A stretch of DNA of 64,000 nucleotides from Acidimicrobiales bacterium (GCA_036262515.1 DATAIT010000055.1:1532-65531), one strand, 5' to 3'. Numbered from the stretch's first letter, positions 9,428 through 61,091 are shown. The notes: generated from the letters alone by a model not told the origin. Program-made: numbers and translations.

Positions 9428-9429
9428 GG

Positions 9430-20100: not shown

Positions 20101-20139
20101 GGGCACGGCGCCGCGTGCGGCGCTACTGCCCGTCTTTTT
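20101..20139 (+). terminator. Intrinsic-terminator-like hairpin with a T-tract
   Basis: gggca-cg-gcgccg-cgtg-cggcgc-tac-tgccc followed by gtcttttt. It begins 8 nt after the TGA at 20091-20093. T-runs are rare in this sequence. Confidence 0.5.
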
Positions 20140-20453
20140 CGCGGCATTCGTCCGAACAATTCAGGCTGGCGACAGATGCCGTAGGCAAGATGTCAGGCGT
20201 CCTCCGGTGGCGGTCGCGTCCACATTGCAGGACACGTCAGGCAATTTCCGCGGTCGCCGGGGCCGGCGCCGAGTTCTCCACAGAGTCACTTGATTCCCTG
20301 GTTTATAGGCGGTACGTTCGAATGAGTACTCGCGTGGGGGCGGTGGTAATCAGTGTGGGAGCATTGGTATCGCGGCGTTGGTCGATACCCCGTCGGCGGT
20401 GGTCCGGCGCGTGCCCCATCGCCGCGCCTTCTTCCTCCACCGGACGGGTCACC

Positions 20454-21983
20454 ATGAGCGCGGGGCAGGGCTCGGTGGATCCCCGCGCATTCGGCATCGC
20501 CCTGGACGCGCCATCGCGCGACATCGGCACGGGATCGTTCGCGGCTACCGAGGTTCGGACACGGGTCGTTCCTCCACTGGCGACAGCCACCTCGCGCGCC
20601 CAACGGCTCACCATCGCGGCCGTCATGGCCGACGTGGTCGGCGTCATCGTCGGCTATGCCCTGGCCCGGCCGGTGCACCTGGCCACGGGAGCGGACCCCG
20701 CACCGTTCCTGCACGCCAGAGCCACACTTGCCTGGACCGTCGCGTTCTGGGCGCCGATCTTCGCCGCCTATCACCTGTACGACCGACGCCGGCTCGGAAG
20801 TCCTGCCGAGGAGGCCCGCCAGGTCCTCCATGCCGTCTGCGTGGCCACGGGCAGCGTCGTCGTCTTCACCTTCTTCGCCGGGGTGGAGCTCGAGCGGGGC
20901 AGCGTCGCCGCCATCTGGGCGACCTGCCTGCTCACCGTCGGCATCGTCCGGCTGGTCATGCGCAAGGTCGCCCACCGGCTGAACTCGAGAGGGTTCACCG
21001 CCGTGCGAGCCGTGGTCGTCGGCGTCAACGACGAGGCGAGGACGCTGGCCCGCATCCTCCAGCGCCAGCGTTGGCGGGGGTACGACGTGGCCGGTTTCGT
21101 CGCCGTCGAGCCGGCGGGATCCGCCTCGGTCGACGGACGGCCGGTCCTGGGTTCGGTGGAGGACATCGCCGCCGTCCTCGACCGCACCGATGCCGGGACG
21201 GTGCTCATCGCCGGCAGCGCCGTGTCGTCGGAGACGCGCTCGGAGCTGGATCGCCAGCTCCAGGCCTCGAACGTCGAGGTGCAGGTCTCGCTGGGACTGC
21301 CGAACCTGGCCGCCTCGAGGTTGTCGGTTCAGGGAATCGACGGCTTGGCCATGCTGTCCGTCCAGCCCAAGCGCCTGAGCCGTCGCCAGGTCGTCGGGAA
21401 GCGGATGTTCGACCTGGTGACTGCCGTGACGCTGGTGATCCTCACCGCTCCGGTCACCGCACTGATCGCTCTGGCCGTGCGCCTCAGTGGGCCCGGGCCG
21501 GTGCTGTTCCGCCAGGTCCGGGTGGGCGAAGGTGGTCGTCCGTTCACGTTGTTCAAGTTCCGCTCCATGGTGGTGCACACCGAGGTCCACCTCGACGAAC
21601 TGACGAGCCGCAACCAGGCGGACGGCCTCCTCTTCAAGATGGCCGACGACCCGCGGGTCACACGCGTCGGTCGCATCCTGCGACGGTTGAGCCTGGACGA
21701 ACTCCCCCAGCTGCTGAACGTCATCCGCGGTGAGATGAGCCTCGTCGGACCGCGGCCGGCCCTCCTCCAGGAAGCCCGCCGGTACGACGAGCAGCTCCGG
21801 AACAGGCTTCGTGTGAAGCCCGGCCTCACCGGCCTGTGGCAGGTCAACGGTCGCCATGCGCTCCCGTTCGAGGACTACGTTCGCTATGACCTCTTCTACG
21901 TGGAGAATTGGTCGCTGAGCCTGGACCTCTACATCATGGCCAAGACCATCCCGGCTCTCTTCAGCCGCCAGGGCGCCTACTGA
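20454..21983 (+). CDS. Polyprenyl-phosphate sugar-phosphate transferase (WbaP/CpsE-type priming glycosyltransferase)
   Basis: ORF 20115-21983; the start at 20454 (MSAGQGS...) is uncertain. TM helices are followed by the C-terminal catalytic domain 'RMFDLVTAV...PVLFRQVRVGEGGRPFTLFKFRSM...DELPQLLNVIRGEMSLVGPRP...KPGLTGLWQV'. Confidence 0.9.
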   Translation: MSAGQGSVDPRAFGIALDAPSRDIGTGSFAATEVRTRVVPPLATATSRAQRLTIAAVMADVVGVIVGYALARPVHLATGADPAPFLHARATLAWTVAFWAPIFAAYHLYDRRRLGSPAEEARQVLHAVCVATGSVVVFTFFAGVELERGSVAAIWATCLLTVGIVRLVMRKVAHRLNSRGFTAVRAVVVGVNDEARTLARILQRQRWRGYDVAGFVAVEPAGSASVDGRPVLGSVEDIAAVLDRTDAGTVLIAGSAVSSETRSELDRQLQASNVEVQVSLGLPNLAASRLSVQGIDGLAMLSVQPKRLSRRQVVGKRMFDLVTAVTLVILTAPVTALIALAVRLSGPGPVLFRQVRVGEGGRPFTLFKFRSMVVHTEVHLDELTSRNQADGLLFKMADDPRVTRVGRILRRLSLDELPQLLNVIRGEMSLVGPRPALLQEARRYDEQLRNRLRVKPGLTGLWQVNGRHALPFEDYVRYDLFYVENWSLSLDLYIMAKTIPALFSRQGAY

Positions 21984-22182
21984 GACGAGCCTCACGGGCA
22001 CGCCCTTTCGCGTCCCGGATCGAGGGCCGGATCGGAACCGGCCCGGCCCGGCCGGGCGCTGCGGTGCGGCGGGTGTGCGATGCTGGAGGGGCGTTGCCGG
22101 AGGCCTTCTCGATCGTCCGCATGGCGGGCGACATCTCGTCGTTCGACCGGGGCCGAGCCGGCGTGTCACGGGGTCGGCACCG

Positions 22183-23340
22183 TTGAGCGCCTCTCCGGCG
22201 GGCCACGAGGTCGCCGACGCCGAGGCTCATCTGGCGGCGGTGGCCGCCCACGGGCTTCCGACGACCATTGCGACGCCGTCGACGGTGCCGCTTCCCCTGG
22301 CGGAGTGGGACCATCTGCTTGCGCGGATACGCCAGGAGCGCCTCGAGGGGCTGCTGAACCGCGTGATCGCCGACGGCGCGCTGGCGGTCACGCCCCGCCA
22401 GGCCGAGGAGGCGGCGGCCGCCAACAGCGCGGCCGTGCGGCTGGTGCTGCGGCTGGAGGCGGTACTGCTCGACACCATCGACGTCCTCACTCGCGCCGGT
22501 GTCGAGTACCGGGTCCTCAAGGGCGCGGCGGTCGCCCGGCTCGACTATCCCGAGCCGACGCTGCGGTCGTTCGTCGACAGCGACGTCCTGGTCCGGTCGG
22601 ACCAGTTCGACCGTGCCGTCGCCGCCCTCATCGACGCCGGGCACCACCGGGCCTCGACCCCGCAGCTGCGGGAAGGGTTCGATCGCCGGTTCGCCAAGGG
22701 GGCGACGTTCCTCACCGCCGACGGCCTCGAGATCGACTTGCACCGGACGCTCGACCGGGGGCCGTTCGGGCTGGCACTGCGGCTTCCCGACCTGTGGGAG
22801 AGCTCGTCGACGTTCGTGCTGGCCGGACGCACCCTGACGTCGCTCCGGCCTGAGGGTCGGTTCCTCCACGCCTGCTACCACGCCGCCCTCGGAGACGTCA
22901 CCCCCCGGCTGGTGCCCCTGCGCGACGTCGCCCAGATGCTCCTCGACGGACGGCTCGATCTCGATCTCGTCCGGTACCTGTCATCGACCTGGCGCGCCAA
23001 TGTCGTCACGGCCCGAGCCGTCCGGCTCGCATGGACCCGCTTGGGCCTCGACGTCGAGACGCCGTTCAGCACGTGGGCCCTCACGTACCGTCCCAAGCGC
23101 TGGGAGGACAGGGCCATGAGCGTGTACCTCGACTCGCGCCGGACCGAGGCGGCCCGCTCGCTGGCCACCCTGCGGTTCATCCCCGGCGCCATGAACAGGC
23201 TCGCCTATCTCGGGGCCGTCGCCTTTCCGAGCCGGACGTACCTCGCGGCGCGGGGACGGGGGCGCTTCTCGCACTGGCGCCGCGCCCACTGGCCATGGCG
23301 GCGGACGTCGCTCGGGCGCGACGACCAGGGCCGGCGCTAG
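22183..23340 (+). CDS. Uncharacterised nucleotidyltransferase-family protein (NTP_transf_5 / PF14907-like)
   Basis: ORF 22075-23340; a TTG at 22183 is a possible start. Motifs are 'AGVEYRVLKGAAVARLDYPEPTLRSFVDSDVLV...' and 'GLEIDLHRTL'. This family is typically seen next to PqqD/HprK-like/lasso-type genes. Confidence 0.6.
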   Translation: MSASPAGHEVADAEAHLAAVAAHGLPTTIATPSTVPLPLAEWDHLLARIRQERLEGLLNRVIADGALAVTPRQAEEAAAANSAAVRLVLRLEAVLLDTIDVLTRAGVEYRVLKGAAVARLDYPEPTLRSFVDSDVLVRSDQFDRAVAALIDAGHHRASTPQLREGFDRRFAKGATFLTADGLEIDLHRTLDRGPFGLALRLPDLWESSSTFVLAGRTLTSLRPEGRFLHACYHAALGDVTPRLVPLRDVAQMLLDGRLDLDLVRYLSSTWRANVVTARAVRLAWTRLGLDVETPFSTWALTYRPKRWEDRAMSVYLDSRRTEAARSLATLRFIPGAMNRLAYLGAVAFPSRTYLAARGRGRFSHWRRAHWPWRRTSLGRDDQGRR

Positions 23341-23344: not shown

Positions 23345-24283
23345 TCAGGACGGGGCTGGCTGCCCGGCCGGCCTGCGCCACGCCGAGAGGTCGAGGTCGA
23401 GGAGGGACTCCGCCAGCCGCAGGTCGTCGGCGTAGAAGGCGCAGAGCCGGGCCTCCAGGTCGGGCGGGACCGACGGCTGCCGGTTCCCGAGCAGGCGGGC
23501 GAGGACCATCCGGTCGAAGCCCACCACAGCCGCGTTGGGCACGAAGGAGAACGGGCGGCGAAGCCGCCGCGGGCGGTAGCTGTACGTCGTCTCCGAGTCC
23601 CACGACCAGACGAACCTGCGTCGGGCTCGGAGGACCCGCAGCCGACGGCGGTCGTAGACCCCGGCGTTCGTCGTGCGCCCGAGTGTGGGCACGGGATGGT
23701 CGGCGGCCACGCCGAGGAACTGGTACACGCGCCCGAACGTGGCCGCGACGCGCAGGTCCTCCTGGCGCAGGACCAGCACCCGCCTGGGCCCGAAGACCTC
23801 GAGGTAGGACCGCAGGTGGGTGCCGTAGAGCCCGTATTCGAGGATGTCGGCGGCCCGGGGATAGGCCGGATCGGCCCAACCGTCCAAAAGCCTCGCCATG
23901 CCGACGTCGAGAGGAGCCAACGGCAGGAGTCCGAACTGCACGTACCAGAAGTACGCGGACACTGCCCGCGACACCGGTTCGCGGAGGACGGCCAGGATCC
24001 GGGCGTCCGGGGCCACGGCCTGGATCCGCCGGGCGCACCCGGGGGCGGCGAGGTACTCGGGCCGCTGGATGCCGAGGCGCTGTCCGGGGGCCGCCTCGGC
24101 GAAGACGCTCCGCAGCACGGACGGAGGGGTCGTCGAGAAGAACCGCTCCTCGAAGTAGGGCACCTCGTCAGGGCAGAGGAAGACCTCTGGATGGGTGTGG
24201 AGGCTGGCGTTCAGATGGGTCGACCCCGCCCGCTGAGCGCCGATGATGACGAAGTCGAGCGGCGCGTCGGAGACGCCCGTCAC
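23345..24283 (-). CDS. Sulfotransferase 1
   Basis: 312 aa. The 5'-PSB loop is 'FVIIGAQRAGSTHL' and the 3'-PB region is 'ILAVLREPVSRAVSAY'. Confidence 0.8.
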   Translation of the reverse strand: MTGVSDAPLDFVIIGAQRAGSTHLNASLHTHPEVFLCPDEVPYFEERFFSTTPPSVLRSVFAEAAPGQRLGIQRPEYLAAPGCARRIQAVAPDARILAVLREPVSRAVSAYFWYVQFGLLPLAPLDVGMARLLDGWADPAYPRAADILEYGLYGTHLRSYLEVFGPRRVLVLRQEDLRVAATFGRVYQFLGVAADHPVPTLGRTTNAGVYDRRRLRVLRARRRFVWSWDSETTYSYRPRRLRRPFSFVPNAAVVGFDRMVLARLLGNRQPSVPPDLEARLCAFYADDLRLAESLLDLDLSAWRRPAGQPAPS

Positions 24284-25128
24284 CGCCGCTCCAGCGAGCC
24301 GGCAGGAGGTGCCGCCACCGCGTACCCGGCGCCGGCGAGGGCGGTGGCACAGCGGCTCTCGAACGTCTCGCGGACCGGAGCGGGCACCAGCTCGTCCCAG
24401 ACCTTGCGCCGGTCCGACCGCACGAATGGCGTTCCGTCTGTCGCCTTCGACGCCAGGAAGGCGCTGGAGGCCTCCTTGGCCCGCATGCGATCCTTGGTGT
24501 TGGCCTCGACCGCCTCGGCGAGCCGGGCCGGCTCCACGGTGACGCCGAGGAAGGCCACGACCCGAGCGAGCTGGCCCACCGGATCGGTCCGGAGGTCCTC
24601 GTACTTCACCATCAGGAACGGTCCCGGGGTCGACCGGCCGAACTCGAGCGCAGCGGCGACATGGTCGTCCCAGGTGCCGTACCCATCGAGCTGGCCGGAC
24701 AGGAACAGGTCCAAGAACGCGTCGAGCTCGCCGTCGAACTGGAGATACCGGCGCTGGTGATCGAGGTAGGACAGGGCCACGTCGCGACCGTCGCGCACGA
24801 GGTAGACGACCGGGCGACCGCAGCGGCCCAGGGTGGGGCTGAGGGGCTCGTGTGACCGGATGACGCGGCCGCCCGAGGGAAGGAGGGCGGGTGCCCCTCT
24901 GTGGCGACCCACGGGAGGCACCGTGTCGCGGATGGAGTCGAAGTCGGCGTGGTGGTCCGTCAGGACATGGGCCAGGAGGAACCGGAGCCAGGTGCTGCCC
25001 GACTTGGGGTACGAGACCAACAGCGCATCCTCACGACGCAGTCCCCGGTGCCTCAGCCACACCAACTGGTGCCGGACCACGCGGCGGACGGGCGGGGGCA
25101 GCAGAGCTGCAGACCTCGACATCTCCAT
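24280..25128 (-). CDS. Sulfotransferase 2
   Basis: ORF trimmed to the ATG at 25126-25128 (MEMSRSAALLPPP...). The PAPS loop is 'LLVSYPKSGSTWLRFLL', with 'VVYLVRDGRDVALS' also present. It overlaps sulfotransferase 1 by 4 nt. Confidence 0.85.
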   Translation of the reverse strand: MEMSRSAALLPPPVRRVVRHQLVWLRHRGLRREDALLVSYPKSGSTWLRFLLAHVLTDHHADFDSIRDTVPPVGRHRGAPALLPSGGRVIRSHEPLSPTLGRCGRPVVYLVRDGRDVALSYLDHQRRYLQFDGELDAFLDLFLSGQLDGYGTWDDHVAAALEFGRSTPGPFLMVKYEDLRTDPVGQLARVVAFLGVTVEPARLAEAVEANTKDRMRAKEASSAFLASKATDGTPFVRSDRRKVWDELVPAPVRETFESRCATALAGAGYAVAAPPAGSLERR

Positions 25129-25460: not shown

Positions 25461-26519
25461 ATGCTCAAGCCCTCGAACTTCTCTCTTGACCCGTCGAAGC
25501 GCGTCCTGGTCACCGGCGCCGGAGGGTTCATCGGCGGCCATCTGATCGCACGGCTGAGGCGGGAGGGCTTCAGCCAGCTGCGGGCCGTGGACTGCAAGCC
25601 GCTCGACGAGTGGTACCTCTCGTTCGACGACGTCGAGCAACTCGTGCTCGACCTGTCCCACCCCGACGCGTGTGCGCGCGGCGCGCGCGGGGTCGATTAC
25701 GTCTTCCATCTCGCCGCCGACATGGGCGGCATGGGCTTCATCGAGAACAACAAGGCGCTGTGCATGCTGTCGGTGCTCACGAGCACGAACATGCTGGTCG
25801 CCGCCCAGGAGGCGGGGGCCCAGCGGTACTTCTACGCCTCGTCGGCCTGCGTGTACGCAGCCGACAAGCAGACCACTCCCGACGTGGCCCCGCTGCGCGA
25901 GGCCGACGCCTATCCGGCGATGCCGGAGGACGGCTACGGGTGGGAAAAGCTGTTCAGCGAGCGGATGGCTCGGCACTTCCTCGAAGACTTCGGGTTCGAG
26001 ACGCGGGTTGCCCGGTACCACAACGTCTACGGACCGCACGGCACCTACATGGGCGGCCGGGAGAAGGCGCCGGCCGCCATCTCGCGGAAGGTGGCGGAAG
26101 CGAAGCTCTCGGGCTCGGGCGAGATCGACATCTGGGGCGACGGCGAGCAGACGCGGAGCTTCACCTACGTCGACGACTGCGTGGAGGGCACGCTGCGGCT
26201 CATGTCGTCGTCGGTGGTCGACCCGTTGAACATCGGGAGCAGCGAGATGGTCACCATCAACGAGCTGGTCTCGATCACCGAGGAGATCGCCGGCGTCAAG
26301 CTTCGTCGCCGCTACACGCTGGATGCCCCACAGGGCGTCCGCGGCCGCAACAGCGACAACACCCGGATCCTCTCCGACCTCCACTGGGAACCTTCGACGC
26401 CGTTGAAGGACGGGATGGAAGTCGTCTACCGCTGGGTCTACGACCAGCTGGCGTCCTCCCGTCGCTGGAACGGCGCCGGGCTCGCCAACGGCGCCCTGCC
26501 GGGGCGGCGTGCCGGCTGA
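25461..26519 (+). CDS. GDP-mannose 3,5-epimerase-like NAD-dependent epimerase (extended SDR)
   Basis: The Rossmann motif is 'VLVTGAGGFIGGHL'. Long collinear similarity to plant/bacterial GME is recalled from memory: 'HLAADMGGMGFIENN', 'FYASSACVY', 'PEDGYGWEKLFSE', 'ARYHNVYGPHGTYMGGREKAPAA', 'IWGDGEQTRSFTYVDDCVEG', 'GVRGRNSDN'. Confidence 0.8.
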   Translation: MLKPSNFSLDPSKRVLVTGAGGFIGGHLIARLRREGFSQLRAVDCKPLDEWYLSFDDVEQLVLDLSHPDACARGARGVDYVFHLAADMGGMGFIENNKALCMLSVLTSTNMLVAAQEAGAQRYFYASSACVYAADKQTTPDVAPLREADAYPAMPEDGYGWEKLFSERMARHFLEDFGFETRVARYHNVYGPHGTYMGGREKAPAAISRKVAEAKLSGSGEIDIWGDGEQTRSFTYVDDCVEGTLRLMSSSVVDPLNIGSSEMVTINELVSITEEIAGVKLRRRYTLDAPQGVRGRNSDNTRILSDLHWEPSTPLKDGMEVVYRWVYDQLASSRRWNGAGLANGALPGRRAG

Positions 26520-27567
26520 CGGCCCACCTCGGGAAGCGCAGCGTTCGGCGGCGGAAACGACCGGAAGCCCTGACGGCCACAGCCCTGACCGGACCGGTCC
26601 GGCCTCGGCGGGGACGACGCAGGACGACGGTACCGGGCAGGAAGAGCCCCTTCGCATCGTCTATGTGGCCGGCACGCAGAACTCCGGCTCGACCCTGCTC
26701 GACACCATCCTCGGCAACGCGCCCGGCGTCTGGAGCCTCGGGGAGGTAGGCGGGTTCCACCGGTACACGTCTGAGCCCAGCTGCGACTGCGGCGAGCCGC
26801 CGGCGTCGTGCGCGCCGTGCCGGGCCGTCCTGGCGTCGCTCGACAAGAGCGGCGACGTCGAGACCCTCGACCGCCTCGGTCCGCTCCCGCTCAAGGAGCG
26901 GAGAGCGCACTGGGCCGTGGCCGGAAGCCGGGCCCGGGCCGAGTACGCCCGGGTGGCGGACATCGCATTCGCGGCGGTCGCGGCCGAGACGGGGAGCTCC
27001 GTCCTCGTCGACTCCTCGAAGAACGTGGCCCGTGCCGCCGCACTCGTCCACGACAGTCGCTACGACGTACGCGTGCTGCACCTCGTCCGGGACGGGCGAG
27101 GGTACCTGGCGTCCCGGCGGCGGCGGGCGCCCATGACGGGGCGCCGCTACGTCGCCCCCGTCGTGATGGCCGGGTGGCTGAGCAAGAACCTGTTCATCTC
27201 GGCGGTGCTCCGCCGTCAGATCCCCACCGGCCACTACCTCCTGTGCCGCTACGAGGACTTCGTCAGCGACCCCGTCGGCGAGCTCCGGCGCATCGGCGCC
27301 TTCGCCGGCGTCGACACGACCGGGCTCGCGGCGTCCGCCATGTCCGAAGGGCTCGAGCGGCACCACTTGTTCGAGCCCCGCCGGCGGGCGAACTACCACG
27401 TCGTGCGCATCGACACCGAACGGCTGCCCGGCCAACGGCTGCCCGTCATGCGCAACCTGGTGTACTGGCTCGGCGGTGGGTTCATCTCGGCGCGGTGGGG
27501 CTACGACCGTCGCCAGAGCTATCTGGACCACGTCGCCGGCCACCGGACCGCCACGGTCGGCGACTGA
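26509..27567 (+). CDS. Sulfotransferase 3
   Basis: It has 'IVYVAGTQNSGSTLLDTIL' (P-loop-like PAPS site), 'VLVDSSKN' and 'HLVRDGRGYLAS'. A low-complexity N-terminus makes the start (GTG 26509) uncertain. Confidence 0.7.
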   Translation: MPADGPPREAQRSAAETTGSPDGHSPDRTGPASAGTTQDDGTGQEEPLRIVYVAGTQNSGSTLLDTILGNAPGVWSLGEVGGFHRYTSEPSCDCGEPPASCAPCRAVLASLDKSGDVETLDRLGPLPLKERRAHWAVAGSRARAEYARVADIAFAAVAAETGSSVLVDSSKNVARAAALVHDSRYDVRVLHLVRDGRGYLASRRRRAPMTGRRYVAPVVMAGWLSKNLFISAVLRRQIPTGHYLLCRYEDFVSDPVGELRRIGAFAGVDTTGLAASAMSEGLERHHLFEPRRRANYHVVRIDTERLPGQRLPVMRNLVYWLGGGFISARWGYDRRQSYLDHVAGHRTATVGD

Positions 27568-27579: not shown

Positions 27580-28812
27580 TCAGGCGCGGGTCCCGCGGCT
27601 GCCGTCAGAGCCGTTGGTGCGGGCCGCCCGCGCCAGGATGTCCTCGAACCGGTCAGTGATGGCGTCGATGTCGAACGACCGCTCGGCGTACTGGCGGGCC
27701 CGCTCGCCGGCGCTGCGGCGGAGATCGGCATCCCCCACGAACGCCTCGGCAGCGGCGATGAAGCGGTCGCGATTGCCCGGGTCGACGACGACGCCCGCTC
27801 CGGCCCGTTCGACGGTTCGCGTCGCCAGGTTCGATCTTGGCATGGCGGCCACGATCGGCCGCTGCGCGCAGAGGTACGTCAAGACCTTGGACGGCACGGA
27901 GAAGATCCCGGCGTCGGGCTCGAGCAGGGCCAGCAGCACGTCGGCCGTTCCCAGCATCTCGGGGACCTGCTCGTAGGGCTGGTACGGCAGGAGCAGCAGG
28001 TTGGCGAGAGGTCGGGCCGCCGTCTCGGCGGCCAGCCAGTCCCGGCCCCGACCCTCGGACACCACGACCACGCGGACGCGGTCGTCCGCCCGGAACCGCT
28101 CGGCCAGGGCGACCAGGAGACCGGGATCGTGCTTGAGGCCGAGGGTCCCCGAATACAGGAACACCAGCCGGTCGTGGAGCCCGTGGCGCCGGGCCCAGGC
28201 ATTGTCCTTGGGAAGTGGACGCAGCTCGTCCAGGGGCGCCCAGTTCTCGACCACGTGGCACCGCTGATCGGGAACCCCCCAGGAGCGGAGCATGGGACGG
28301 AAGTCGTCGGTGATGGCCACGACGGCGGCCGCATGACGGAGCAGGCTGCGCTCGATGCCGCCGAAGAACCACCCAAGGGCCGGGCCGGCGAAACCGAACC
28401 TGTGCCCGAGGTACTTGGCCATGGCCTGGCTGTACACGTCCTGGAGCCAAAAGACCCACGGGGTGCGCGAGCGGGCACACCAGGCGGCCGCCCGGGCCTT
28501 GGCGAAGAGCGGATCGTTGCTGGAGAGGATCACGTCGGGGCGGACGGCGCCGGCCCAGCGGTTGAACCGCCCGCCGTACTCGAGCTCCTGGCCGAGGCGG
28601 CGGCCGATCGAGTAGCGGTCGAAGGTCTGCCCGAGCTGGATCGCCTCGATCCGCAACGTGTCGGGGTCGTCGTCGGTGCGCGTCACCGCGCCCTTCCCGG
28701 TCTGGTACGACGCGCAGTGGACGTGCAGCACCTCGTGGCGGCGAGCGGCCAGGGCGCGGCTGAGCTGCATCTGGAAGGGATGCCCGGAGTAGTCGTGGAC
28801 GAGGATCCGCAC
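27580..28812 (-). CDS. GT4-family glycosyltransferase (WcaI-like)
   Basis: Starts at the GTG at 28810-28812 (VRILVHDYSGHPFQMQLSRALA...). The GT-B C-terminal half reads 'LVFLYSGTLGLKHD...' and 'SKVLTYLCAQRPIVA'. Confidence 0.8.
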   Translation of the reverse strand: MRILVHDYSGHPFQMQLSRALAARRHEVLHVHCASYQTGKGAVTRTDDDPDTLRIEAIQLGQTFDRYSIGRRLGQELEYGGRFNRWAGAVRPDVILSSNDPLFAKARAAAWCARSRTPWVFWLQDVYSQAMAKYLGHRFGFAGPALGWFFGGIERSLLRHAAAVVAITDDFRPMLRSWGVPDQRCHVVENWAPLDELRPLPKDNAWARRHGLHDRLVFLYSGTLGLKHDPGLLVALAERFRADDRVRVVVVSEGRGRDWLAAETAARPLANLLLLPYQPYEQVPEMLGTADVLLALLEPDAGIFSVPSKVLTYLCAQRPIVAAMPRSNLATRTVERAGAGVVVDPGNRDRFIAAAEAFVGDADLRRSAGERARQYAERSFDIDAITDRFEDILARAARTNGSDGSRGTRA

Positions 28813-28852
28813 GGCCTCTAGGCCCAACTCGCAGGGTGCCGGTGGCCGATGG

Positions 28853-29983
28853 TCACGCCACCAGCTCGGCGTACAGCTTGGTCCGCCGGGTGACGAATGC
28901 GCTCTGCGCGTACCTGTCGCAGAAGAGGCTGCGGCAGTGCGCTCGCAGCGCATCGAAGCCCCGGTGCCCCTCCTCCAGGGACGACGCCAGGGAGCCCCAC
29001 GACGCCACGAGGCCGGTGCCGTCGCGCTCGACGGAATCGGCGACGACGTTCGGCCGGAAGGCGACGACGGGCAGACCGGCGGCCAGTGCCTCGAGGTACA
29101 CGAGCGAGATCGTCTCGTACCACAGGCTCGGCATCACCAAGCCGAACGACTCCCGCATGGCCATGAGCACTTCCGGCCTCGACAGGCGCCCGGCGAAGCG
29201 GATGTCCTTTCCCTTGGCCGCCTGCTCCAGCGACGAGCGCATCGGCCCGTCGCCGACGACGAGCAGCGGGACCGACGCCGGCCACTCGTCGACCAGCGGG
29301 GCGATGCCCTTCTCCTCGGTCAGGCGGCCGACGAACACCCACCGCTCGTCTCTGTCCGTGCCGTACCCCGGATCGTGGCTGTCTGGCACGAAGTGCCAGT
29401 CGCGGTGCAGCTTCGACTCAGGGACCCCGGCCTCGGCAAAGACGGACCGGGCTCGTTCCGACAAGACCAGGACCCGGCGGGCCGCCACCACCAGAGGATC
29501 GCTGGCGGCACCCTTTCGCCCGGCCCACGCCAACGGCAACGTGGCCAGCCGCGAGCCCCGATAGCACCCATGACGAACCCCGGACCAGCGCCGCCCGCTC
29601 GGGCACAACGTGCAAACGTCTCCCGCTCGGTACAGGTACCCGTTGGCGCACAGCGGTCGGTAGCTGTGCATGGTGGCGACCACCGGTTGCTCCACGTTCT
29701 GCAACCACCGGTGGCCGAGGTAGGGAAAGAGGTTGTGGACGTGGATGACGTCGGGCTCGAAGCTGTCGAGCATGCGGATGGGTGAGATCCCGAAACCCGT
29801 CGCGATCGTCGAGATCGCCCTCAGGCGGTGCAGAGGACGCGCGTTCTGTTCGTCGTTGGTGACCGCCACCACCCGGACGTCGACGCCGGCCTCTCGGAGA
29901 GCTGCCGCCTCCGCGTCGACAACCTCGTTCTCGCCGCTGGGCGAGTCGCTGCTGTGGAAGTCGTGGACGAGCGCGACCCTCAT
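28853..29983 (-). CDS. GT4-family glycosyltransferase
   Basis: MRVALVHDFHSSDSPSGENEVV..., with 'WVFVGRLTEEKGI' and the E-x7-E-like region 'PSLWYETISLVYLEALAAGLPVVA'. Confidence 0.8.
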   Translation of the reverse strand: MRVALVHDFHSSDSPSGENEVVDAEAAALREAGVDVRVVAVTNDEQNARPLHRLRAISTIATGFGISPIRMLDSFEPDVIHVHNLFPYLGHRWLQNVEQPVVATMHSYRPLCANGYLYRAGDVCTLCPSGRRWSGVRHGCYRGSRLATLPLAWAGRKGAASDPLVVAARRVLVLSERARSVFAEAGVPESKLHRDWHFVPDSHDPGYGTDRDERWVFVGRLTEEKGIAPLVDEWPASVPLLVVGDGPMRSSLEQAAKGKDIRFAGRLSRPEVLMAMRESFGLVMPSLWYETISLVYLEALAAGLPVVAFRPNVVADSVERDGTGLVASWGSLASSLEEGHRGFDALRAHCRSLFCDRYAQSAFVTRRTKLYAELVA

Positions 29984-30052: not shown

Positions 30053-31480
30053 CTAAGCCCCGGCACGGGCCAGCGACTGGTCGACGAGGAAGACCGCGTC
30101 GTTGCCGGGGACCGTCACGCGCGACCCCGCCGCCACCTGCCCGACGACCTTGCCGTCCTGCACTCGTTCCCAGGCCTTGTGGACGACGACCGAGCCGGGT
30201 TCCGCCCCGAGGTTCACGTACACGACGCCGTGCTCGAAGTCCCGATGGTCGATGCTGCCCTCCGTGCTGGCTCGGCCGGCGGGGTTGCCGAGGTTCACGT
30301 CGACGTCGGGATGGCGATCCTCCAGCTGTCTGGTGGTGTAGTCCGGCCCGCTCTGGTAGTACGAGAATCCCGGGCGCCATGCCATCAGGAATGCGCCCAG
30401 GCAGAAGCGCTCCAGGCGGTTCGGGTCGTCGGCATCCCGGATGTTGACTCGCATGAAGAACCGGTCCGGCGAGTCGCTGCTCAACAGCGAGAGATCCTCC
30501 TGGACGTAGTTCAGGCTGGCTCGGACGGTCACGCAGAAGCGCTCGTCGAACGTCCCGTCCGCCACCTCCAGCAGCTTGGTGTTGCGATCCGGGCCCTTGA
30601 GATGGAAGTTCGGGGCGATGCCGTTGTAGTAGACGGTCCGTTGCGGTCCGACCAGGCGCTTGGCCGCGGCGAGGAGCTCGCGCATCCCGTCGTTGTACGC
30701 TGCGACCCGATCGGGCCCAAGGAGCCCCTCCCACTCCGCCTGGTTCTCCTGGTCGCCTTGGCCGAGGGGCACGGCGGCGTCGAATGCGACGCCCGCGTAC
30801 GGCGCGGCTCGCAACCACGTGTCCAGGACACCGATGGCCCAGGAGCGGTACGCGGGATTGGCCAGGTCGAGATAGGTGGCGACCTGCACCTCCTTTCCCT
30901 CACGGTTCTTCAGCTTCGGGACCAGCTGGCCGTCCTTGTCCCGCAGGAACCAGGCAGGATCCGGCTCGACACCCCACTTGTTGTTGTCGAACCAGTACTT
31001 GGTGGAGAAGTACGGGAAGACACGAATGTCCGGGCGGAGAGCGACGAGGCGCCGTGCCGCCTCGTGGTGCTTGGTGATGTCGAACCGAGCATGGAACTTG
31101 GCGATGACCACCACGTCGTAATCCTTGACGATCGATGCGTAATCCGCCTCGGAGAACTGTGGCTCCTCCGTCTCACCGATCCAGATGAACGAGCGCCCGG
31201 GCTGCGGAGCGTAGGGTCCTGCGGCGGTCGGCCGGGCGCTGGGCGACGAGGGCTGTCCCGGCGCGTTGGACGTCGGGCCGGACGGGATCGTCGTCGCCTC
31301 CGACACCCGGCTCGTCGTCGACGTGCTCGTGGCCGATCGGTCCTTCTCGTCACGGGAGAGCGTGGTCGCGAGCACGATGGTGGCGAGCACGGCCGCTCCG
31401 ACACCCCAGGCGACGAGCTTCGTCCGCCGGCTCTTCGCGCCCGGCGGTCGCCCGGGCTCCTGGCGCGGCTCTGGGTTCAC
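30053..31480 (-). CDS. Membrane-anchored extracytoplasmic protein, possible glycoside-hydrolase-like (GHL-type TIM barrel) enzyme
   Basis: 475 aa with an N-terminal TM ('LVAWGVGAAVLATIVLATTL'), a Ser/Thr/Pro linker, then a globular domain ('VVVIAKFHARFD...', 'YLDLANPAYRSW', 'GVAFDAA'). The family assignment is tentative. Confidence 0.35.
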   Translation of the reverse strand: MNPEPRQEPGRPPGAKSRRTKLVAWGVGAAVLATIVLATTLSRDEKDRSATSTSTTSRVSEATTIPSGPTSNAPGQPSSPSARPTAAGPYAPQPGRSFIWIGETEEPQFSEADYASIVKDYDVVVIAKFHARFDITKHHEAARRLVALRPDIRVFPYFSTKYWFDNNKWGVEPDPAWFLRDKDGQLVPKLKNREGKEVQVATYLDLANPAYRSWAIGVLDTWLRAAPYAGVAFDAAVPLGQGDQENQAEWEGLLGPDRVAAYNDGMRELLAAAKRLVGPQRTVYYNGIAPNFHLKGPDRNTKLLEVADGTFDERFCVTVRASLNYVQEDLSLLSSDSPDRFFMRVNIRDADDPNRLERFCLGAFLMAWRPGFSYYQSGPDYTTRQLEDRHPDVDVNLGNPAGRASTEGSIDHRDFEHGVVYVNLGAEPGSVVVHKAWERVQDGKVVGQVAAGSRVTVPGNDAVFLVDQSLARAGA

Positions 31481-39024: not shown

Positions 39025-39067
39025 CGGTGCTGATCGTCGGCCCGAAGACGCAGGAAAGGACGTGGTC

Positions 39068-40926: not shown

Positions 40927-40969
40927 CCCCGTGTCGCGCCCGCATCCTGCGGGCGCCCGGCGGGAGCTG

Positions 40970-48224: not shown

Positions 48225-48367
48225 GGCGGTTTCTCCATGCGTCGGACAGCGGCTCCGCCTAACGTCGGCCTCCGCGGATGTCCTCTTGAGGAGCGACCGG
48301 CGGGGCCCGCGCGCTAGCCGCGTCGAGATCGCTACGCTTGTCCGAGGACGGCAGCAGGGGGAGAGAC

Positions 48368-55323: not shown

Positions 55324-55395
55324 GTCCGCCCCCGCGTTTGAGCTGTGCCACAGGAGAGTACCGGACGCCCGGACCTCCGCCGACAAGGGGGAGGC

Positions 55396-58810: not shown

Positions 58811-58825
58811 GGATCATGCCTGGGC

Positions 58826-58845: not shown

Positions 58846-58907
58846 GTCCAGGCGCTCCCGGCCCTTCCACGGGCCGGCCGGGGACCGACGCTCCTAGAGT
58901 CTCCGGT

Positions 58908-59840
58908 GTGACGGACAGCCACGCGATGACGGCACATCCGTTCGAGTTGAGCCACCTCGAGGAGCTCGAGGCAGAAGCCGTCTTCGTGATGCGCGAGGTG
59001 GCGGCCGAGCTGAAGCGACCGGTCCTGTTGTTCAGCGGGGGAAAGGACTCGGTCGTCCTCCTGCGCCTGGCCGAGAAGGCCTTCCGCCCCGCCGGGTTCC
59101 CGTTCCCGATCATGCACATCGACACGGGTCACAACTTCCCGGAGGTGCTCGAGTTCCGGGACCGACGGGTCGCCGAGCTGGGCGAACGCCTCATCGTGGC
59201 CAGCGTCCAGGAGTCCATCGACCGCGGACGCGTGATCGACGAGACCGGTCCGCGGGCGTCCAGGAACCGGCTCCAGACGACCACGCTCCTCGACGCCATC
59301 GAGGAGCACGGCTTCGACGCCTGCTTCGGCGGGGCACGCCGCGACGAGGAGAAGGCCCGCGCCAAGGAACGCTTCTTCTCGTTCCGGGACGAGTTCGGCC
59401 AGTGGGACCCTCGGAACCAGCGACCGGAGCTCTGGCACGTCTACAACGGCCGGGTCCGCGAGGGTGAGCACATCCGTGCCTTCCCGATCTCCAACTGGAC
59501 CGAGCTCGACGTCTGGCAGTACATCGCCCGCGAGGGCCTCGAGCTGCCGTCGATGTATTTCGCCCACAAGCGGGAGGTCGTCGAGCGTGACGGGATGCTG
59601 CTGGCCACCGGTCCGCACCTGCCGGCGGTCGACGACGAAGCGCCGTTCGTCGCCACGGTGCGCTACCGGACGGTCGGTGACATGTCGTGCACCGGCGCCG
59701 TCGTCTCCTCGGCGTCGACGCTGGAGGAGGTCATCGCCGAGGTCAGCGCCACTCGGGTGACCGAGCGAGGAGCGACGCGCGCCGACGACAAGTTCTCCGA
59801 GGCGGCCATGGAGGACCGCAAGAAGGAGGGGTACTTCTAG
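58908..59840 (+). CDS. cysD: Sulfate adenylyltransferase subunit 2
   Basis: GTG start. The PAPS-reductase-like PP-loop is 'VLLFSGGKDSVVLLRLA', with 'GARRDEEKARAKERFFSFRD', 'ISNWTELDVWQYI' and the C-terminal 'RKKEGYF'. Confidence 0.95.
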   Translation: MTDSHAMTAHPFELSHLEELEAEAVFVMREVAAELKRPVLLFSGGKDSVVLLRLAEKAFRPAGFPFPIMHIDTGHNFPEVLEFRDRRVAELGERLIVASVQESIDRGRVIDETGPRASRNRLQTTTLLDAIEEHGFDACFGGARRDEEKARAKERFFSFRDEFGQWDPRNQRPELWHVYNGRVREGEHIRAFPISNWTELDVWQYIAREGLELPSMYFAHKREVVERDGMLLATGPHLPAVDDEAPFVATVRYRTVGDMSCTGAVVSSASTLEEVIAEVSATRVTERGATRADDKFSEAAMEDRKKEGYF

Positions 59841-61091
59841 ATGGACCTCCTGCGCTTTGCCACCGCCGGCTCGGTGGACGACGGGAAGAGCACGCTCATC
59901 GGCAGGCTGCTCTACGACTCGAAGCAGATCTTCGAGGACCAGCTCGAGGCGGTCGAGCGGGCCAGCTCGCAGCGCGGGCTGGACTACGTGAACCTGGCCC
60001 TGCTCACCGACGGGCTGCGGGCCGAGCGCGAGCAGGGCATCACCATCGACGTGGCCTACCGCTACTTCGCCACGCCGCGGCGGAAGTTCATCATCGCCGA
60101 CACCCCCGGGCACGTGCAGTACACGCGCAACATGGTGACCGGGGCGTCCACGGCCGACCTCGCCCTCGTGCTGGTCGACGCGCGCCGGGGCCTCCTCGAG
60201 CAGTCCAGGCGCCATGCGTTCATCGCCACGCTGCTCCGGATACCGCACCTCGTCGTCTGTGTGAACAAGATGGACCTGGTCGAATGGGACGAGGACGTGT
60301 TCAACCGGATCAGGGACGACTTCCGCGCCTTCGCGACCCGGCTGGACATCGCCGATCTGACGTTCATCCCGATCTCTGCGCTGCAGGGCGACAACGTGGT
60401 CGATCGCTCCTCCAACATGCCCTGGTACACCGGGCTCCCGCTGCTGGCCCACCTCGAGAACGTCCACATCGCCTCGGACCGCAACCTCGTCGACAGCCGG
60501 TTCGCCGTGCAGTACGTCATCCGGCCCACGCCCGAGCGCCGCCGGGACTACTGCGCCTTCGCAGGCCAGGTGATGGGCGGGTTCTTCCGGCCCGGTGACG
60601 ATGTCGTCGTCCTGCCGTCCGGCCTGACCTCCACCATCGCGTCGGTCGAGACCTTCGACGGTCCGTTGCAGGAGGTCTTTCCCCCGATGTCGGTCGCCAT
60701 CCGCCTGGACGACGACATCGACGTGTCCCGAGGCGACTTCATCGTCCGACCGGGGAACCAGCCCGAGGTGGGCCAGGACCTCGACGCCATGATCTGCTGG
60801 CTCACCGAGCAGCCGCTCGTCGAGCACGAGACATATCTGCTCAAGCACACGACACGCTGGAGCCAGACGGTCGTCCGCGACCTGCGCTACCGGCTCGACA
60901 TCAACACGCTCCACCGCGACGAGAAGGCCGAACGGTTGGACCTCAACGAGATCGGCCGGGTCACGCTGCGCACGACGACGCCGCTGATGTTCGACGACTA
61001 CCGGCGCAACCGGTCGACGGGCAGCTTCATCCTCGTCCACCGAGCGACGAACGCCACGGTGGGCGCCGGCATCATCCTCGCCTCCGCCTGA
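59841..61091 (+). CDS. cysN: Sulfate adenylyltransferase subunit 1 (GTPase), without a fused APS-kinase domain
   Basis: G1 is 'TAGSVDDGKSTLIGRLL', G3 is 'DTPGHVQY' and G4 is 'NKMDL'. It is 416 aa and ends '...TNATVGAGIILASA', with no CysC P-loop domain. Confidence 0.95.
   Translation: MDLLRFATAGSVDDGKSTLIGRLLYDSKQIFEDQLEAVERASSQRGLDYVNLALLTDGLRAEREQGITIDVAYRYFATPRRKFIIADTPGHVQYTRNMVTGASTADLALVLVDARRGLLEQSRRHAFIATLLRIPHLVVCVNKMDLVEWDEDVFNRIRDDFRAFATRLDIADLTFIPISALQGDNVVDRSSNMPWYTGLPLLAHLENVHIASDRNLVDSRFAVQYVIRPTPERRRDYCAFAGQVMGGFFRPGDDVVVLPSGLTSTIASVETFDGPLQEVFPPMSVAIRLDDDIDVSRGDFIVRPGNQPEVGQDLDAMICWLTEQPLVEHETYLLKHTTRWSQTVVRDLRYRLDINTLHRDEKAERLDLNEIGRVTLRTTTPLMFDDYRRNRSTGSFILVHRATNATVGAGIILASA

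Follow-up and report, generated by a model that had tools for sequence, protein, structure and literature searches.

A conserved actinobacterial locus with six sulfotransferases, likely for assembly of a densely sulfated polysaccharide

We analysed a 64-kb stretch of DNA of metagenome origin (the window) and found at positions 20,454-52,163 a coherent glycan locus of ~32 kb (Table 1). The first-pass annotation had proposed a 41-kb island. That extent was not borne out: the span merges the ~32-kb locus with an unrelated lasso-peptide-like RiPP cluster at 52.4-57.3 kb and a secreted protein. An island in the sense of horizontal transfer was not supported either: G+C is nearly uniform, no tRNA was found by scanning, a search for flanking repeats gave none, and no integrase or transposase family occurs among the Pfam-scanned genes. 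A terminator scan gave nothing at ~20.1 kb, where a terminator had been placed; the site has just a weak 6-bp GC hairpin with TCTTTTT ~10 nt on. The gene coordinates previously given for the priming transferase, the GT4 enzymes, the Wzz/BY-kinase, the MsbA-like exporter and cysDN were all reproduced.

Table 1. Features of the sulfotransferase-rich locus and of cysDN (positions in the window).
Feature	Coordinates	Strand	Basis
Polyprenyl-phosphate glycosylphosphotransferase (priming)	20454..21983	+	Bac_transf 222 bits, CoA_binding_3
NTP_transf_5 nucleotidyltransferase, accessory	22075..23340	+	PF14907 101 bits
ST1 sulfotransferase	23345..24283	-	Sulfotransfer_3 41 bits, Sulfotransfer_1 28.5 bits, both above cut-off
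ST2 sulfotransferase	24280..25128	-	Sulfotransfer_1 101 bits
GDP-mannose 3,5-epimerase (predicted)	25461..26519	+	Plant GDP-mannose 3,5-epimerases 8sg0 311 bits, 2c59 305 bits
ST3 sulfotransferase	26509..27567	+	Sulfotransfer_3 53 bits
GT4a glycosyltransferase, weakly WcaI-like	27580..28953	-	Glyco_trans_4_4, Glycos_transf_1
GT4b glycosyltransferase	28853..29983	-	Glyco_trans_1_4 69.6 bits
Membrane-anchored GHL15 glycoside-hydrolase-like protein	30053..31480	-	PF14885 50 bits
Secreted phosphoesterase (PLC/acid-phosphatase family) with PKD domains, accessory	31648..33993	-	Phosphoesterase 232 bits, PKD x2
PpiC-type peptidyl-prolyl isomerase, accessory	34198..35097	+	Rotamase 56 bits
Polytopic WaaL/Wzy-fold membrane protein, putative polymerase	35128..36555	-	Predicted fold (WaaL)
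ST4 sulfotransferase	36569..37477	-	Sulfotransfer_3 82 bits
FAD-dependent prolyl-carrier-protein dehydrogenase (predicted)	37879..39024	+	PigA 464.6 bits, RedW 445.8 bits, both just below cut-off
Peptidyl/acyl carrier protein	39062..39322	+	PP-binding 29 bits (cut-off 20.8); DSLG serine present
Stand-alone proline-specific adenylation enzyme, PltF-like (predicted)	39319..40926	+	TIGR01733 410.8 bits, above cut-off
Membrane-anchored extracytoplasmic SGNH-fold esterase/acyltransferase-like protein	40931..42232	+	Predicted fold
Wzz co-polymerase fused to BY-kinase-type P-loop ATPase	42258..43982	-	Wzz 35 bits, AAA_31, ParA
ST5 sulfotransferase	44078..44971	-	Sulfotransfer_3 47 bits, Sulfotransfer_1 29.8 bits
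ST6 sulfotransferase	45096..46058	+	Sulfotransfer_3 110.7 bits
Secreted DUF1996 protein with four Calx-beta repeats	46080..48224	-	DUF1996 161.7 bits, Calx-beta x4
Alpha/beta hydrolase 2	48338..49270	+	Hydrolase_4; hydr2_PEP 65 bits (weak, below cut-off)
Alpha/beta hydrolase 1	49273..50175	+	Abhydrolase_1, Hydrolase_4; hydr1_PEP 68 bits (weak, below cut-off)
MsbA/PglK/HepA-type ABC half-transporter, proposed glycan flippase/exporter	50259..52163	+	ABC_membrane, ABC_tran
cysD and cysN (ATP sulfurylase)	58908..61091	+	CysD 459 bits, CysN TIGR02034 552 bits

For comparison, 16 related loci (L001-L016) from Acidimicrobiales/Actinomycetota metagenome bins were searched by tblastn. L001-L013, which come from independently assembled metagenomes of soil and other sources, hold sulfotransferase orthologs linked with GT4a, GT4b, the Wzy-like protein, the ABC exporter, the Wzz/kinase, the epimerase, and the GHL15 and DUF1996 proteins. 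The compact L006 carries seven sulfotransferases, two GT4s and the priming enzyme within 20 kb, a stretch in which no MOP flippase was found. The nucleotidyltransferase, phosphoesterase, isomerase and SGNH-fold protein had no match in the 16 loci. Given this lack of conservation and the metagenomic origin of the window, the clustering might be an artefact of assembly or a mosaic whose genes are unrelated and share no product. We regard the chance of this as next to negligible: at least 13 independent contigs, long-read bins included, show the linked gene set, codon-position G+C does not vary along the locus, and near-identical DNA turned up in at least 7 runs of soil metagenomes, drawn from 4 studies. 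The region is probably a chromosomal locus for polysaccharide assembly from an uncultured Acidimicrobiales-like actinobacterium of soil, and one of a small conserved locus family.

All six ORFs annotated as sulfotransferases pass the Pfam gathering score for Sulfotransfer_1 and/or Sulfotransfer_3, and each contains both PAPS-binding motifs (GAQRAGST and REPVSRAVS in ST1, PKSGSTW and RDGRDVALS in ST2, GAPRSGTT and RNGWGAVPS in ST4, GSQKSGTT and REPVGRAYS in ST5). An N-terminal signal or TM segment was found in none of the six. Their pairwise identity is at most 36%, over partial alignments, and they are therefore not recent duplicates; each has instead a separate ortholog in the related loci at 37-65% identity. 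Orthologs were detected for ST1 in 9 loci (56-65% identity), for ST2 in 8 (56-61%), for ST3 in 13 of the 13 loci found via the Wzy-like protein (53-63%), for ST4 in 12 (57-65%), for ST5 in 5 (37-57%) and for ST6 in 5 (47-59%), as well as in L014 and L016 (41-45%). Translation of ST3 more likely starts near 26665 than at 26509, as indicated by GC3 and by orthologs that align from about residue 50. The earlier proposal that six distinct sulfotransferases in a polysaccharide-assembly locus imply dense, regiospecific sulfation is strengthened by the finding of an own ortholog for each in independent assemblies.

The closest solved structures to ST2 are the small-molecule sulfotransferases Teg12, StaL and cytosolic SULTs; those to ST6 are the protein-tyrosine sulfotransferases TPST1/2 and the CurM sulfotransferase. 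Such resemblances would suit a reading in which some or all of the enzymes act on non-carbohydrates, for instance the neighbouring lasso-like peptide or a small molecule derived from proline, and the locus makes a sulfated natural product instead of a glycan. Lasso clusters that include genes for an HPr-kinase homolog, a nucleotidyltransferase and a sulfotransferase are on record (PMC8498205), and the window has genes of all three kinds. However, the lasso-like cluster lies 6-30 kb from the six sulfotransferases, whose orthologs all reside in glycan-assembly loci with no lasso genes in the examined sequence; conserved partners are the GT4s, the priming transferase, Wzz and the Wzy-like protein. 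A non-glycan product is thus highly improbable.

The cysD and cysN genes, reported as the locus's own sulfate-activation genes, are present and score above the NCBIfam cut-offs, but their linkage to the locus did not hold: they lie 6.7 kb away, beyond the lasso-like cluster, and no homolog occurs in the examined sequence of any of the 16 related loci. CysN, 416 aa long, matches the bifunctional CysNC model (632 positions) only from 23 to 432, without the kinase half, and no APS kinase is encoded anywhere in the window. PAPS could therefore not be made by cysDN alone, and its supply is unaccounted for by the window genes. It is possible that cysDN serve as the APS source, although membership of the locus is not demonstrable. 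In L009, an APS kinase gene lies immediately upstream of ST2-ST1.

The priming enzyme scores 432.5 bits with TIGR03025 (cut-off 295.6) and has an ortholog in L006 (42% identity). Its earlier annotation as a priming transferase was upheld; with the equivalog models for WbaP and WcaJ it does not reach the cut-offs. Both GT4 enzymes were confirmed by Pfam glycosyltransferase matches. GT4a reaches 130.7 bits with the WcaI-family model, below its cut-off of 276, and has orthologs in 10 loci (49-65%); GT4b also has orthologs in 10 loci (55-65%), mostly encoded directly upstream of the Wzy-like gene, and a weaker match in L003 (30%). Overlooked at first pass was the predicted GDP-mannose 3,5-epimerase. 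Its matches to the plant enzymes are full-length, other SDR families all score at most 104 bits, the SSACxY, YGxEK and GGREKAPAA motifs are conserved, and orthologs occur in 7 loci (52-73%). The enzyme would be a source of GDP-L-galactose or GDP-L-gulose, and the glycan probably contains one of these sugars. Of the 'heparin/fucoidan-like' polyanion guessed earlier, the fucoidan-like half is the more apt because of this epimerase.

The putative polymerase, previously called Wzy_C-like, gave no significant Pfam or NCBIfam match (Wzy_C E=1.2, sub-threshold in the same region of three family members). What stood was the WaaL/Wzy fold: a confident AF2 model (pLDDT 84.6, pTM 0.86) has the WaaL O-antigen ligase 7tpg_B as its sole significant PDB match (E=3.6e-4, TM 0.47/0.53). 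Its homologs, 22 at 39-50% identity and one 99% near-duplicate of the window's own protein, are all metagenomic. The Wzz/BY-kinase call was upheld by TIGR01007 (150.5 bits, cut-off 108). This protein has two TM segments and lacks a C-terminal Tyr cluster, with one Tyr in the C-terminal tail; orthologs are found in 10 loci (32-44%) and, more weakly, in L014 and L016 (27-32%). The MsbA-like exporter likewise has the expected domains. It matches MsbA (231 bits), HepA (225 bits) and PglK (207 bits), missing all NCBIfam equivalog cut-offs, and its orthologs in 9 loci (57-68%), whose examined sequence shows no lasso genes, are encoded 0-1 genes from the Wzy-like gene or GT4a. As noted before, no MOP/Wzx flippase is among the called genes, and no gap is large enough for one. 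The ABC protein could alternatively export other cargo or the finished polymer.

Wzy and WaaL have the same fold, and the WaaL match therefore cannot tell a polymerase from a ligase. In the Campylobacter Pgl pathway, an ABC flippase is combined with en bloc transfer. By that architecture, the exporter, with PglK among its best NCBIfam matches, would flip a sulfated oligosaccharide, and the WaaL-fold protein would be a WaaL/PglL-like ligase or oligosaccharyltransferase that moves it en bloc to protein, lipid or cell wall, giving a glycoconjugate rather than an exopolysaccharide. The WaaL ligase is indeed the only significant structural match, at a moderate TM-score, and one homolog is labelled 'O-antigen ligase family protein' at NCBI. 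A co-polymerase of the Wzz/BY-kinase type conserved in the locus family fits a polymerase, however, and no second Wzy_C-type protein is present for polymerising, which makes a ligase unlikely here.

A chain finished and sulfated in the cytoplasm on a lipid carrier and exported whole, with the WaaL-fold protein merely attaching or terminating it, would agree with the missing Wzx and with the whole-glycan exporters of the HepA and ChvA/NdvA type among the exporter's matches. In L014 and L016, the dehydrogenase, two hydrolases and sulfotransferases do occur together with a GT2 and an ABC-2 transporter resembling Wzm/Wzt. The exporter in the window is a fused MsbA/PglK-type half-transporter and not an ABC-2 protein, though, the locus encodes just two GT4s and lacks a processive GT2 synthase, and the pairing of a Wzy-fold protein with Wzz is characteristic of block polymerisation. 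We consider this ABC-transporter-dependent route very unlikely.

Also missed by the first-pass annotation were a predicted proline-activating cassette (PltF-like ligase, carrier protein and prolyl-carrier dehydrogenase) and a pair of alpha/beta hydrolases found repeatedly alongside it in related loci. The dehydrogenase matches prolyl-ACP dehydrogenase 4irn (458 bits) and L-prolyl-PCP dehydrogenase 5zw0 (331 bits), and its orthologs in L014-L016 (70-72%) lie beside hydrolases and sulfotransferases. The adenylation enzyme aligns full-length with PltF 6o6e (374 bits) and shares 8 of 9 specificity residues with it (DLFYLALVC vs DLLYLALVC); orthologs occur in L004 and L015 (59-61%). Carrier protein orthologs (47-53%) were detected in L001, L009, L010 and L015, as were those of hydrolase 2 (50-57%), which also has weaker ones in L003, L014 and L016 (32-38%). 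Hydrolase 1 has orthologs in the same loci (49-59%), invariably paired with hydrolase 2; in neither is a classic GxSxG nucleophile elbow present where it normally lies. The order in L015 is hydrolase-hydrolase-dehydrogenase-carrier-ligase-Wzz/kinase-GT4a-ABC-ST6. The cassette is absent from the examined sequence of several related loci.

The SGNH-fold protein has no Pfam match; its AF2 model (pLDDT 78) matches the SsfX3 acyltransferase, the OafB and OatA SGNH domains and sialate O-acetylesterases in Foldseek. GMSN is invariant, and the block V His is replaced by Asn (N312; His in 30 of 31 homologs). The GHL15 protein has one N-terminal TM segment and orthologs in 5 loci (40-53%), and the DUF1996 part of the secreted protein is kept in L006 and L008 (46-49%).

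We consider it likely that the locus encodes a Wzy-type pathway, with an ABC protein as its flippase, for a densely sulfated polysaccharide, possibly acylated with a proline-derived group. Of the Wzy-dependent-like pathway first suggested, the priming enzyme, GT4s, Wzz/kinase and exporter stand, and the putative polymerase is assigned by its fold. From the observed family assignments, conservation and gene linkage, we infer the step order, the repeat-unit size and the acceptor of each sulfotransferase, as well as that the ABC protein acts as a flippase, that the WaaL-fold protein polymerises rather than ligates, and that acylation takes place. The glycosylphosphotransferase would prime polyprenyl phosphate, and the two GT4s would extend it to a short repeat unit, probably of three sugars if each transferase acts once and none is encoded elsewhere, at least one being L-galactose or L-gulose supplied by the locus's own epimerase. 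The six divergent, signal-less PAPS-type sulfotransferases would then modify different positions of the lipid-linked unit at the cytoplasmic face. The highly anionic unit would cross the membrane via the MsbA/PglK-type half-transporter, not Wzx, and be polymerised by the WaaL/Wzy-fold protein under the Wzz/BY-kinase-like co-polymerase; extracellular processing may follow by the membrane-anchored GHL15 and secreted DUF1996 proteins. An accessory module of the proline ligase, carrier protein, prolyl-carrier dehydrogenase and two hydrolases probably decorates the glycan with an acyl group made from proline, either pyrrole-2-carboxyl or dehydroprolyl. If this pathway is true, six sulfotransferases against only three sugar-adding enzymes would make the product an unusually sulfated bacterial glycan.

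Because the window is about 70% G+C, most of its listed open reading frames are spurious; genes were called by codon-position G+C, and the called genes were scanned against Pfam and NCBIfam. All parts named by the first-pass annotation (priming enzyme, GT4 glycosyltransferases, Wzy-like protein, Wzz/kinase, exporter, sulfotransferases and cysDN) were recovered at the positions listed in the table. The Pfam check proposed there for the six sulfotransferases (ST1-ST6) was run, and all six scored above the gathering score of Sulfotransfer_1 and/or Sulfotransfer_3, at 41-111 bits. Inspection located both PAPS-binding motifs in each protein: the 5'-phosphosulfate-binding loop, with the pattern xxGST/GTT close to the N-terminus, and the 3'-phosphate-binding motif R(D/E/N)(G/P)xxxxxS. 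The six share at most 36% identity with one another, in partial alignments, and none has a signal peptide. NCBIfam gave them no informative name; two had weak NoeE matches only, far under the cut-off. A 42-nt stretch of ST2 (minus strand, 24768-24809) is 88% complementary to one of ST6 (plus strand, 45511-45552); it encodes the common (Y/H)LVRDGRDVALS 3'-phosphate-binding motif, and the proteins overall are only about 33% identical. None of the RNA runs searched contained the sulfotransferase genes.

Features of the polysaccharide-assembly locus and its surroundings (window positions)
Feature	Position	Strand	Remarks
AdoHcy hydrolase, PGI/PMI-type SIS protein, phosphomannomutase	6872-10785		10 kb upstream
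Short coding-like stretch	19723-20093		reading-frame change near 19870; no plausible N-terminal part
Priming transferase	20454-21983		
NTP_transf_5 nucleotidyltransferase	22075-23340		between priming enzyme and ST1
Sulfotransferases (six)	23345-24283, 24280-25128, 26509-27567, 36569-37477, 44078-44971, 45096-46058		
Epimerase	25461-26519	+	
GT4 glycosyltransferases (two)	27580-28953, 28853-29983		
Wzy-like protein	35128-36555	-	
Proline cassette	37879-40926	+	dehydrogenase, carrier protein, ligase
SGNH-fold protein	40931-42232		directly after proline ligase
Wzz/kinase	42258-43982	-	
Hydrolases 2 and 1	48338-50175	+	
ABC exporter	50259-52163	+	
Lasso-peptide-like cluster	52423-57296		
Candidate lasso precursor	52423-52593	-	MDSRYEAPDMRVLGLVSELTRMPAPPGKTGTVHDSSAFLSNFSCVSGPGSCGGHKH; leader motif YxxPxLxxxGxxxxxTx
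HPr-kinase-like gene	52687-53535		divergent
Asn-synthetase-like protein	within 52.4-57.3 kb		unusually short, 400 aa; 17 bits vs 525 on cyclase model
Lasso B2 protease, transglutaminase-like	within 52.4-57.3 kb		passes NF033537, 39.9 vs 33
PqqD protein (B1)	within 52.4-57.3 kb		passes Pfam; fails lasso-specific models, 43 vs 70
ABC-2 transporter pair (ABC ATPase and ABC-2 permease)	within 52.4-57.3 kb		
Choice-of-anchor-P family protein	57686-58810		344.6 bits; the codon-bias start lacks a signal peptide
cysDN	58908-61091		

Thirteen related loci (L001-L013) were assembled from the contexts of homologs of the Wzy-like protein and from a scan of species-representative genomes, in which the single sequence retrieved no relative and an alignment of the family retrieved six; three more (L014-L016) were reached through the dehydrogenase of the proline cassette. 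Those of L001-L013 that carry an organism label come from Acidimicrobiales/Actinomycetota bins and one Nocardioidaceae bin. When all window proteins were compared with the related loci by tblastn, each of ST1-ST6 had its own ortholog there, at 37-65% identity and mostly at least 47%. The genes recur as blocks: ST2-ST1; epimerase-ST4-ST3-GT4b-Wzy-like protein; ST6; ABC exporter; ST5; GT4a; and Wzz/kinase. GHL15, DUF1996 and the priming enzyme accompany the recurring sulfotransferase/GT4 blocks, and several loci hold a seventh sulfotransferase type. One of them, L006, packs seven sulfotransferases, two GT4s and a priming enzyme, with no MOP flippase, into 20 kb. At least seven soil-metagenome runs, drawn from four studies, contained near-identical DNA. 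That the clustering is an artefact of assembly, or of chance, is ruled out by the separate orthologs of each sulfotransferase in recurring blocks. The window locus is a real, conserved glycan locus that is unusually rich in sulfotransferases, and the separate orthologs of each argue for a conserved sulfation pattern. In L002 the orthologous genes are split into many short frames (GT4b into four pieces, the ABC exporter into six), more likely through uncorrected sequencing error than through decay.

A less probable rival reading gives these enzymes non-carbohydrate acceptors: the nearest solved relatives of the locus sulfotransferases examined act on small molecules or tyrosine, and a carbohydrate acceptor is predicted from gene context only. 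The priming transferase, called WbaP-type in the first-pass annotation, scored 432.5 bits (cut-off 295.6) on TIGR03025, the model for exopolysaccharide polyprenyl glycosylphosphotransferases, and 222 bits on Bac_transf, and fell under the WbaP and WcaJ equivalog cut-offs. Both GT4 enzymes were found, GT4a being weakly WcaI-like. The Wzz/BY-kinase is likewise as first described, a Wzz domain (35.3 bits vs 25.5) fused to a P-loop domain (TIGR01007, 150.5 vs 108). Walker A, A' and B motifs are present in its BY-kinase-type domain, whose C-terminal tail holds a single Tyr; the usual cluster of autophosphorylated Tyr residues seems to be missing.

The putative polymerase had been described as Wzy_C-like. 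Its Pfam match was not significant (Wzy_C, E=1.2; E=0.009-0.046 for two homologs). The protein is a polytopic membrane protein with 22 homologs at 39-50% identity and one 99% near-duplicate, all metagenomic, and its family profile retrieved just 440 representatives from 1.84 billion proteins. The profile had no match among PDB sequences, and only the fold search gave one: an alignment-based AlphaFold model (pLDDT 84.6, pTM 0.86) had the WaaL O-antigen ligase as its sole significant structural match (E=3.6e-4, TM 0.47/0.53), which on the model places the protein in the WaaL/Wzy fold. It could thus be a ligase rather than a polymerase; NCBI names one homolog 'O-antigen ligase family protein [Acidimicrobiales bacterium]', and the fold is common to both readings.

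No MOP/Wzx flippase had been recognized at first, and none was found here: the called genes between 20 and 61 kb have no Polysacc_synt, MurJ or MATE match, no unassigned gap in the locus is big enough for such a gene, and the annotated relatives L001 and L003-L006 gave no MOP match. The MsbA-like exporter is an ABC half-transporter with the ABC_membrane and ABC_tran architecture of PglK, MsbA and HepA. These are its best NCBIfam matches (207-231 bits), and it scores under every equivalog cut-off and so lies outside all named families. PglK flips a lipid-linked oligosaccharide, taking the place of a Wzx. Export of the whole chain by the ABC protein is a rival reading; best supported is a pathway of the Wzy type with cytoplasmic sulfation and the ABC half-transporter in place of Wzx. 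The sulfotransferases would decorate the lipid-linked repeat unit in the cytoplasm, where they are placed because PAPS is cytoplasmic and they lack export signals; the half-transporter would then stand in for Wzx, and polymerization by the WaaL/Wzy-fold protein with Wzz would follow outside the cell.

Sulfate activation had been credited to the locus itself, by way of cysDN. Both genes are authentic and begin 6.7 kb past the locus end, and the window CysN lacks an APS kinase half. No APS kinase was detected in the window by tblastn, and cysDN was absent from the available sequence of all 16 related loci; the assignment is not supported. In L009 an APS kinase gene, cysC (1151-1777, 44% identity to E. 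coli CysC), lies directly upstream of ST2-ST1, and none was found in the available sequence of the other 15. PAPS-supply genes sometimes join such loci, then, but have not joined the window locus. An exact look-up of the window CysN in the assembly collection gave no match.

Two components were overlooked in the first-pass annotation, an epimerase and a proline cassette. The epimerase matched plant GDP-mannose 3,5-epimerases at 311 (8sg0, residues 13-334) and 305 bits, against at most 104 for other SDR families, and is kept in seven related loci. Its SSACVY, YGWEK and GGREKAPAA motifs, which hold the catalytic Cys, Tyr-x3-Lys and Lys, align with the plant enzyme. The expected product is GDP-L-galactose or GDP-L-gulose (PMC8787198). 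The plant enzyme serves ascorbate and cell-wall synthesis, and the sole characterized bacterial one, from Methylacidiphilum, is tied to lipopolysaccharide (PMC6678494, PMC8787198); the window enzyme shows full-length similarity at 311 bits with the catalytic motifs kept, and differs in being set in a putative sulfated-glycan locus of Actinomycetota.

The proline cassette is one three-gene operon. The dehydrogenase, which probably acts on a prolyl-carrier protein, scored 464.6 bits vs 500 on the PigA model and 445.8 vs 650 on RedW, with AnaB (4irn, 458) as the best solved match; the stand-alone ligase matched PltF (6o6e) at 374 bits over its full length, with eight of nine specificity residues identical and a pocket region scoring 135 bits against PltF and at most 76 against non-proline enzymes. 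The predicted dehydrogenase product is either pyrrolyl (four-electron oxidation) or pyrrolinyl (two-electron), which sequence does not distinguish. A proline ligase, carrier protein and FAD dehydrogenase likewise share an operon in PltF/PltL/PltE, RedM/O/W, PigI/G/A and AnaC/AnaD/AnaB; known proline-to-pyrrole cassettes supply pathways to polyketides, alkaloids or aminocoumarins, whereas this one is followed by no PKS/NRPS and has as neighbours sulfotransferases, a pair of alpha/beta hydrolases and genes for glycan assembly. The exosortase-A-associated cassette (TIGR03098, TIGR03100, TIGR03101) likewise sets an AMP-forming ligase, a carrier protein and paired alpha/beta hydrolases within an exopolysaccharide locus; the window scores on those models are weak and far under the cut-offs (328 vs 592, 68 vs 168, 65 vs 203), and the window locus has no exosortase or PEP-CTERM gene.

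Dehydrogenase orthologs are abundant in Actinomycetota bins and, in all three contexts sampled, lie beside paired alpha/beta hydrolases, sulfotransferases and glycan-assembly genes. The gene order in L015 is hydrolase-hydrolase-dehydrogenase-carrier-ligase-Wzz/kinase-GT4a-ABC exporter-ST6, and the two window hydrolases correspond to this pair. Such recurring linkage suggests that the glycan may receive an acyl group derived from proline; hydrolase 1 matched only generic alpha/beta hydrolases among solved structures, and no acyltransferase was assigned. L014 and L016 form a second locus type in Actinomycetota bins, ordered prolyl-carrier dehydrogenase, ABC-2 permease/ATPase, GT2, two hydrolases, sulfotransferase, a gene of no assigned function, GMC oxidoreductase and sulfotransferase; upstream lie a response regulator, a PqqD protein and a Polysacc_synt_2 dehydratase. 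The membrane-anchored, extracytoplasmic SGNH-fold protein of the window was not found in the related loci. Its block V residue is Asn, at a position occupied by His in 30 of 31 homologs; the family is secreted, has no Pfam model and gave more than 2,400 matches across Acidobacteria, Chloroflexi and Planctomycetota.

The extent of the locus had to be revised. The 41 kb first proposed do not hold, as the conserved partners stop at the ABC exporter (52,163); a separate lasso-peptide-like RiPP cluster, the choice-of-anchor-P protein and cysDN follow. The core start of the candidate lasso precursor is atypical, with Met after the leader motif and no Asp/Glu at core position 7-9; a Gly...Asp ring five residues later is possible. 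McjD and other lasso exporters share the transporter type of the ABC exporter. Service of the exporter to the lasso-like cluster was rejected, since in nine loci without lasso genes in the available sequence its orthologs neighbour GT4a or the Wzy-like gene, and since the cluster owns an ABC-2 pair. Sulfotransferases as lasso-tailoring enzymes were likewise rejected, on their synteny with glycan-assembly genes in loci without lasso genes in the available sequence. The NTP_transf_5 gene, of a family that accompanies HPr-kinase-type lasso clusters (PMC8498205), is 30 kb from the lasso-like genes and missing from the related loci.

At the left edge, the terminator reported at about 20.1 kb is a weak hairpin that the pattern scan did not call as a terminator. 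The coding-like stretch beside it may be a gene remnant; a sigma-factor-associated gene broken by a frameshift was suspected, and Pfam gave only sub-threshold TPR matches. G+C is near-uniform, no tRNAs or boundary repeats were found and the upstream genes are housekeeping, so the locus is chromosomal with no evident island; a horizontally acquired island was dropped on these grounds, together with the missing pattern-scan terminator. The upstream SIS protein and phosphomannomutase could feed GDP-mannose, their appearance being that of ordinary housekeeping synteny.

Sulfated polysaccharides have been described as scarce in bacteria outside cyanobacteria, and genetically defined clusters hold two or three sulfotransferases (PMC13390465, PMC8205485, PMC11641403); sulfated anionic glycoconjugates are reported to be common in environmental biofilm matrices (PMC10483923). 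Our literature search found no paper joining Acidimicrobiia, sulfotransferases and polysaccharides, nor one joining pyrrole-2-carboxyl groups to polysaccharide sulfation. The window locus resembles synechan xss of Synechocystis sp. PCC 6803 in probably coding for a Wzy-type extracellular polysaccharide, and in having its own PAPS-type sulfotransferases of distinct subfamilies and a PCP co-polymerase. xss has two sulfotransferases for eight glycosyltransferases plus a Wzx (PMC8205485), whereas the window locus, in another phylum and cell envelope, has six (seven in relatives) for two GT4s and a priming enzyme, an ABC half-transporter rather than Wzx, and the GDP-mannose 3,5-epimerase and proline cassette. 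By gene content it is also like wps-1 of Actinoplanes missouriensis, a Wzy-type locus of an actinobacterium in which sulfotransferases are joined by a glycoside hydrolase and a Wzz-like protein; wps-1 differs in its two sulfotransferases and a Wzx, and its sulfated product is predicted (PMC13390465). The Vibrio sp. KMM 8419 capsule cluster, whose sulfated product has a solved structure, similarly joins sulfotransferases and sulfate-activation genes in a polysaccharide locus, with full cysNDC, KpsMT-type ABC export and three sulfotransferases over about 80 genes (PMC11641403). By comparison the window has no cysC, its cysDN does not recur with the locus in relatives, and its sulfotransferase density is far higher.

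Three sugar transferases against six or seven sulfotransferases could give about two sulfates per sugar, assuming that each transferase acts once and none is encoded elsewhere. A fuller reading, which we put forward as doubtful, is that the locus family makes an undescribed class of bacterial polyanion. Its repeat would comprise roughly three sugars, L-galactose or L-gulose among them, with regiospecific sulfate esters numbering as many as six or seven (about two per sugar, more than in heparin) and a proline-derived pyrrole-2-carboxyl or dehydroprolyl ester. Assembly would be Wzy-type, with an ATP-driven ABC flippase in place of Wzx on account of the very high charge of the unit. The conserved, compact locus (20 kb in L006) of widespread soil Actinomycetota is a concrete, clonable candidate that unites six or seven orthologous sulfotransferases, an L-sugar-forming epimerase and just three sugar transferases. 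Should the product match the prediction, fucoidan/heparin-like polyanions would have a microbial source, and the locus would offer regiospecific carbohydrate sulfotransferases as a set and a test of whether ABC flippases replace Wzx for highly charged repeat units, and the proline cassette would represent a new kind of glycan acylation.
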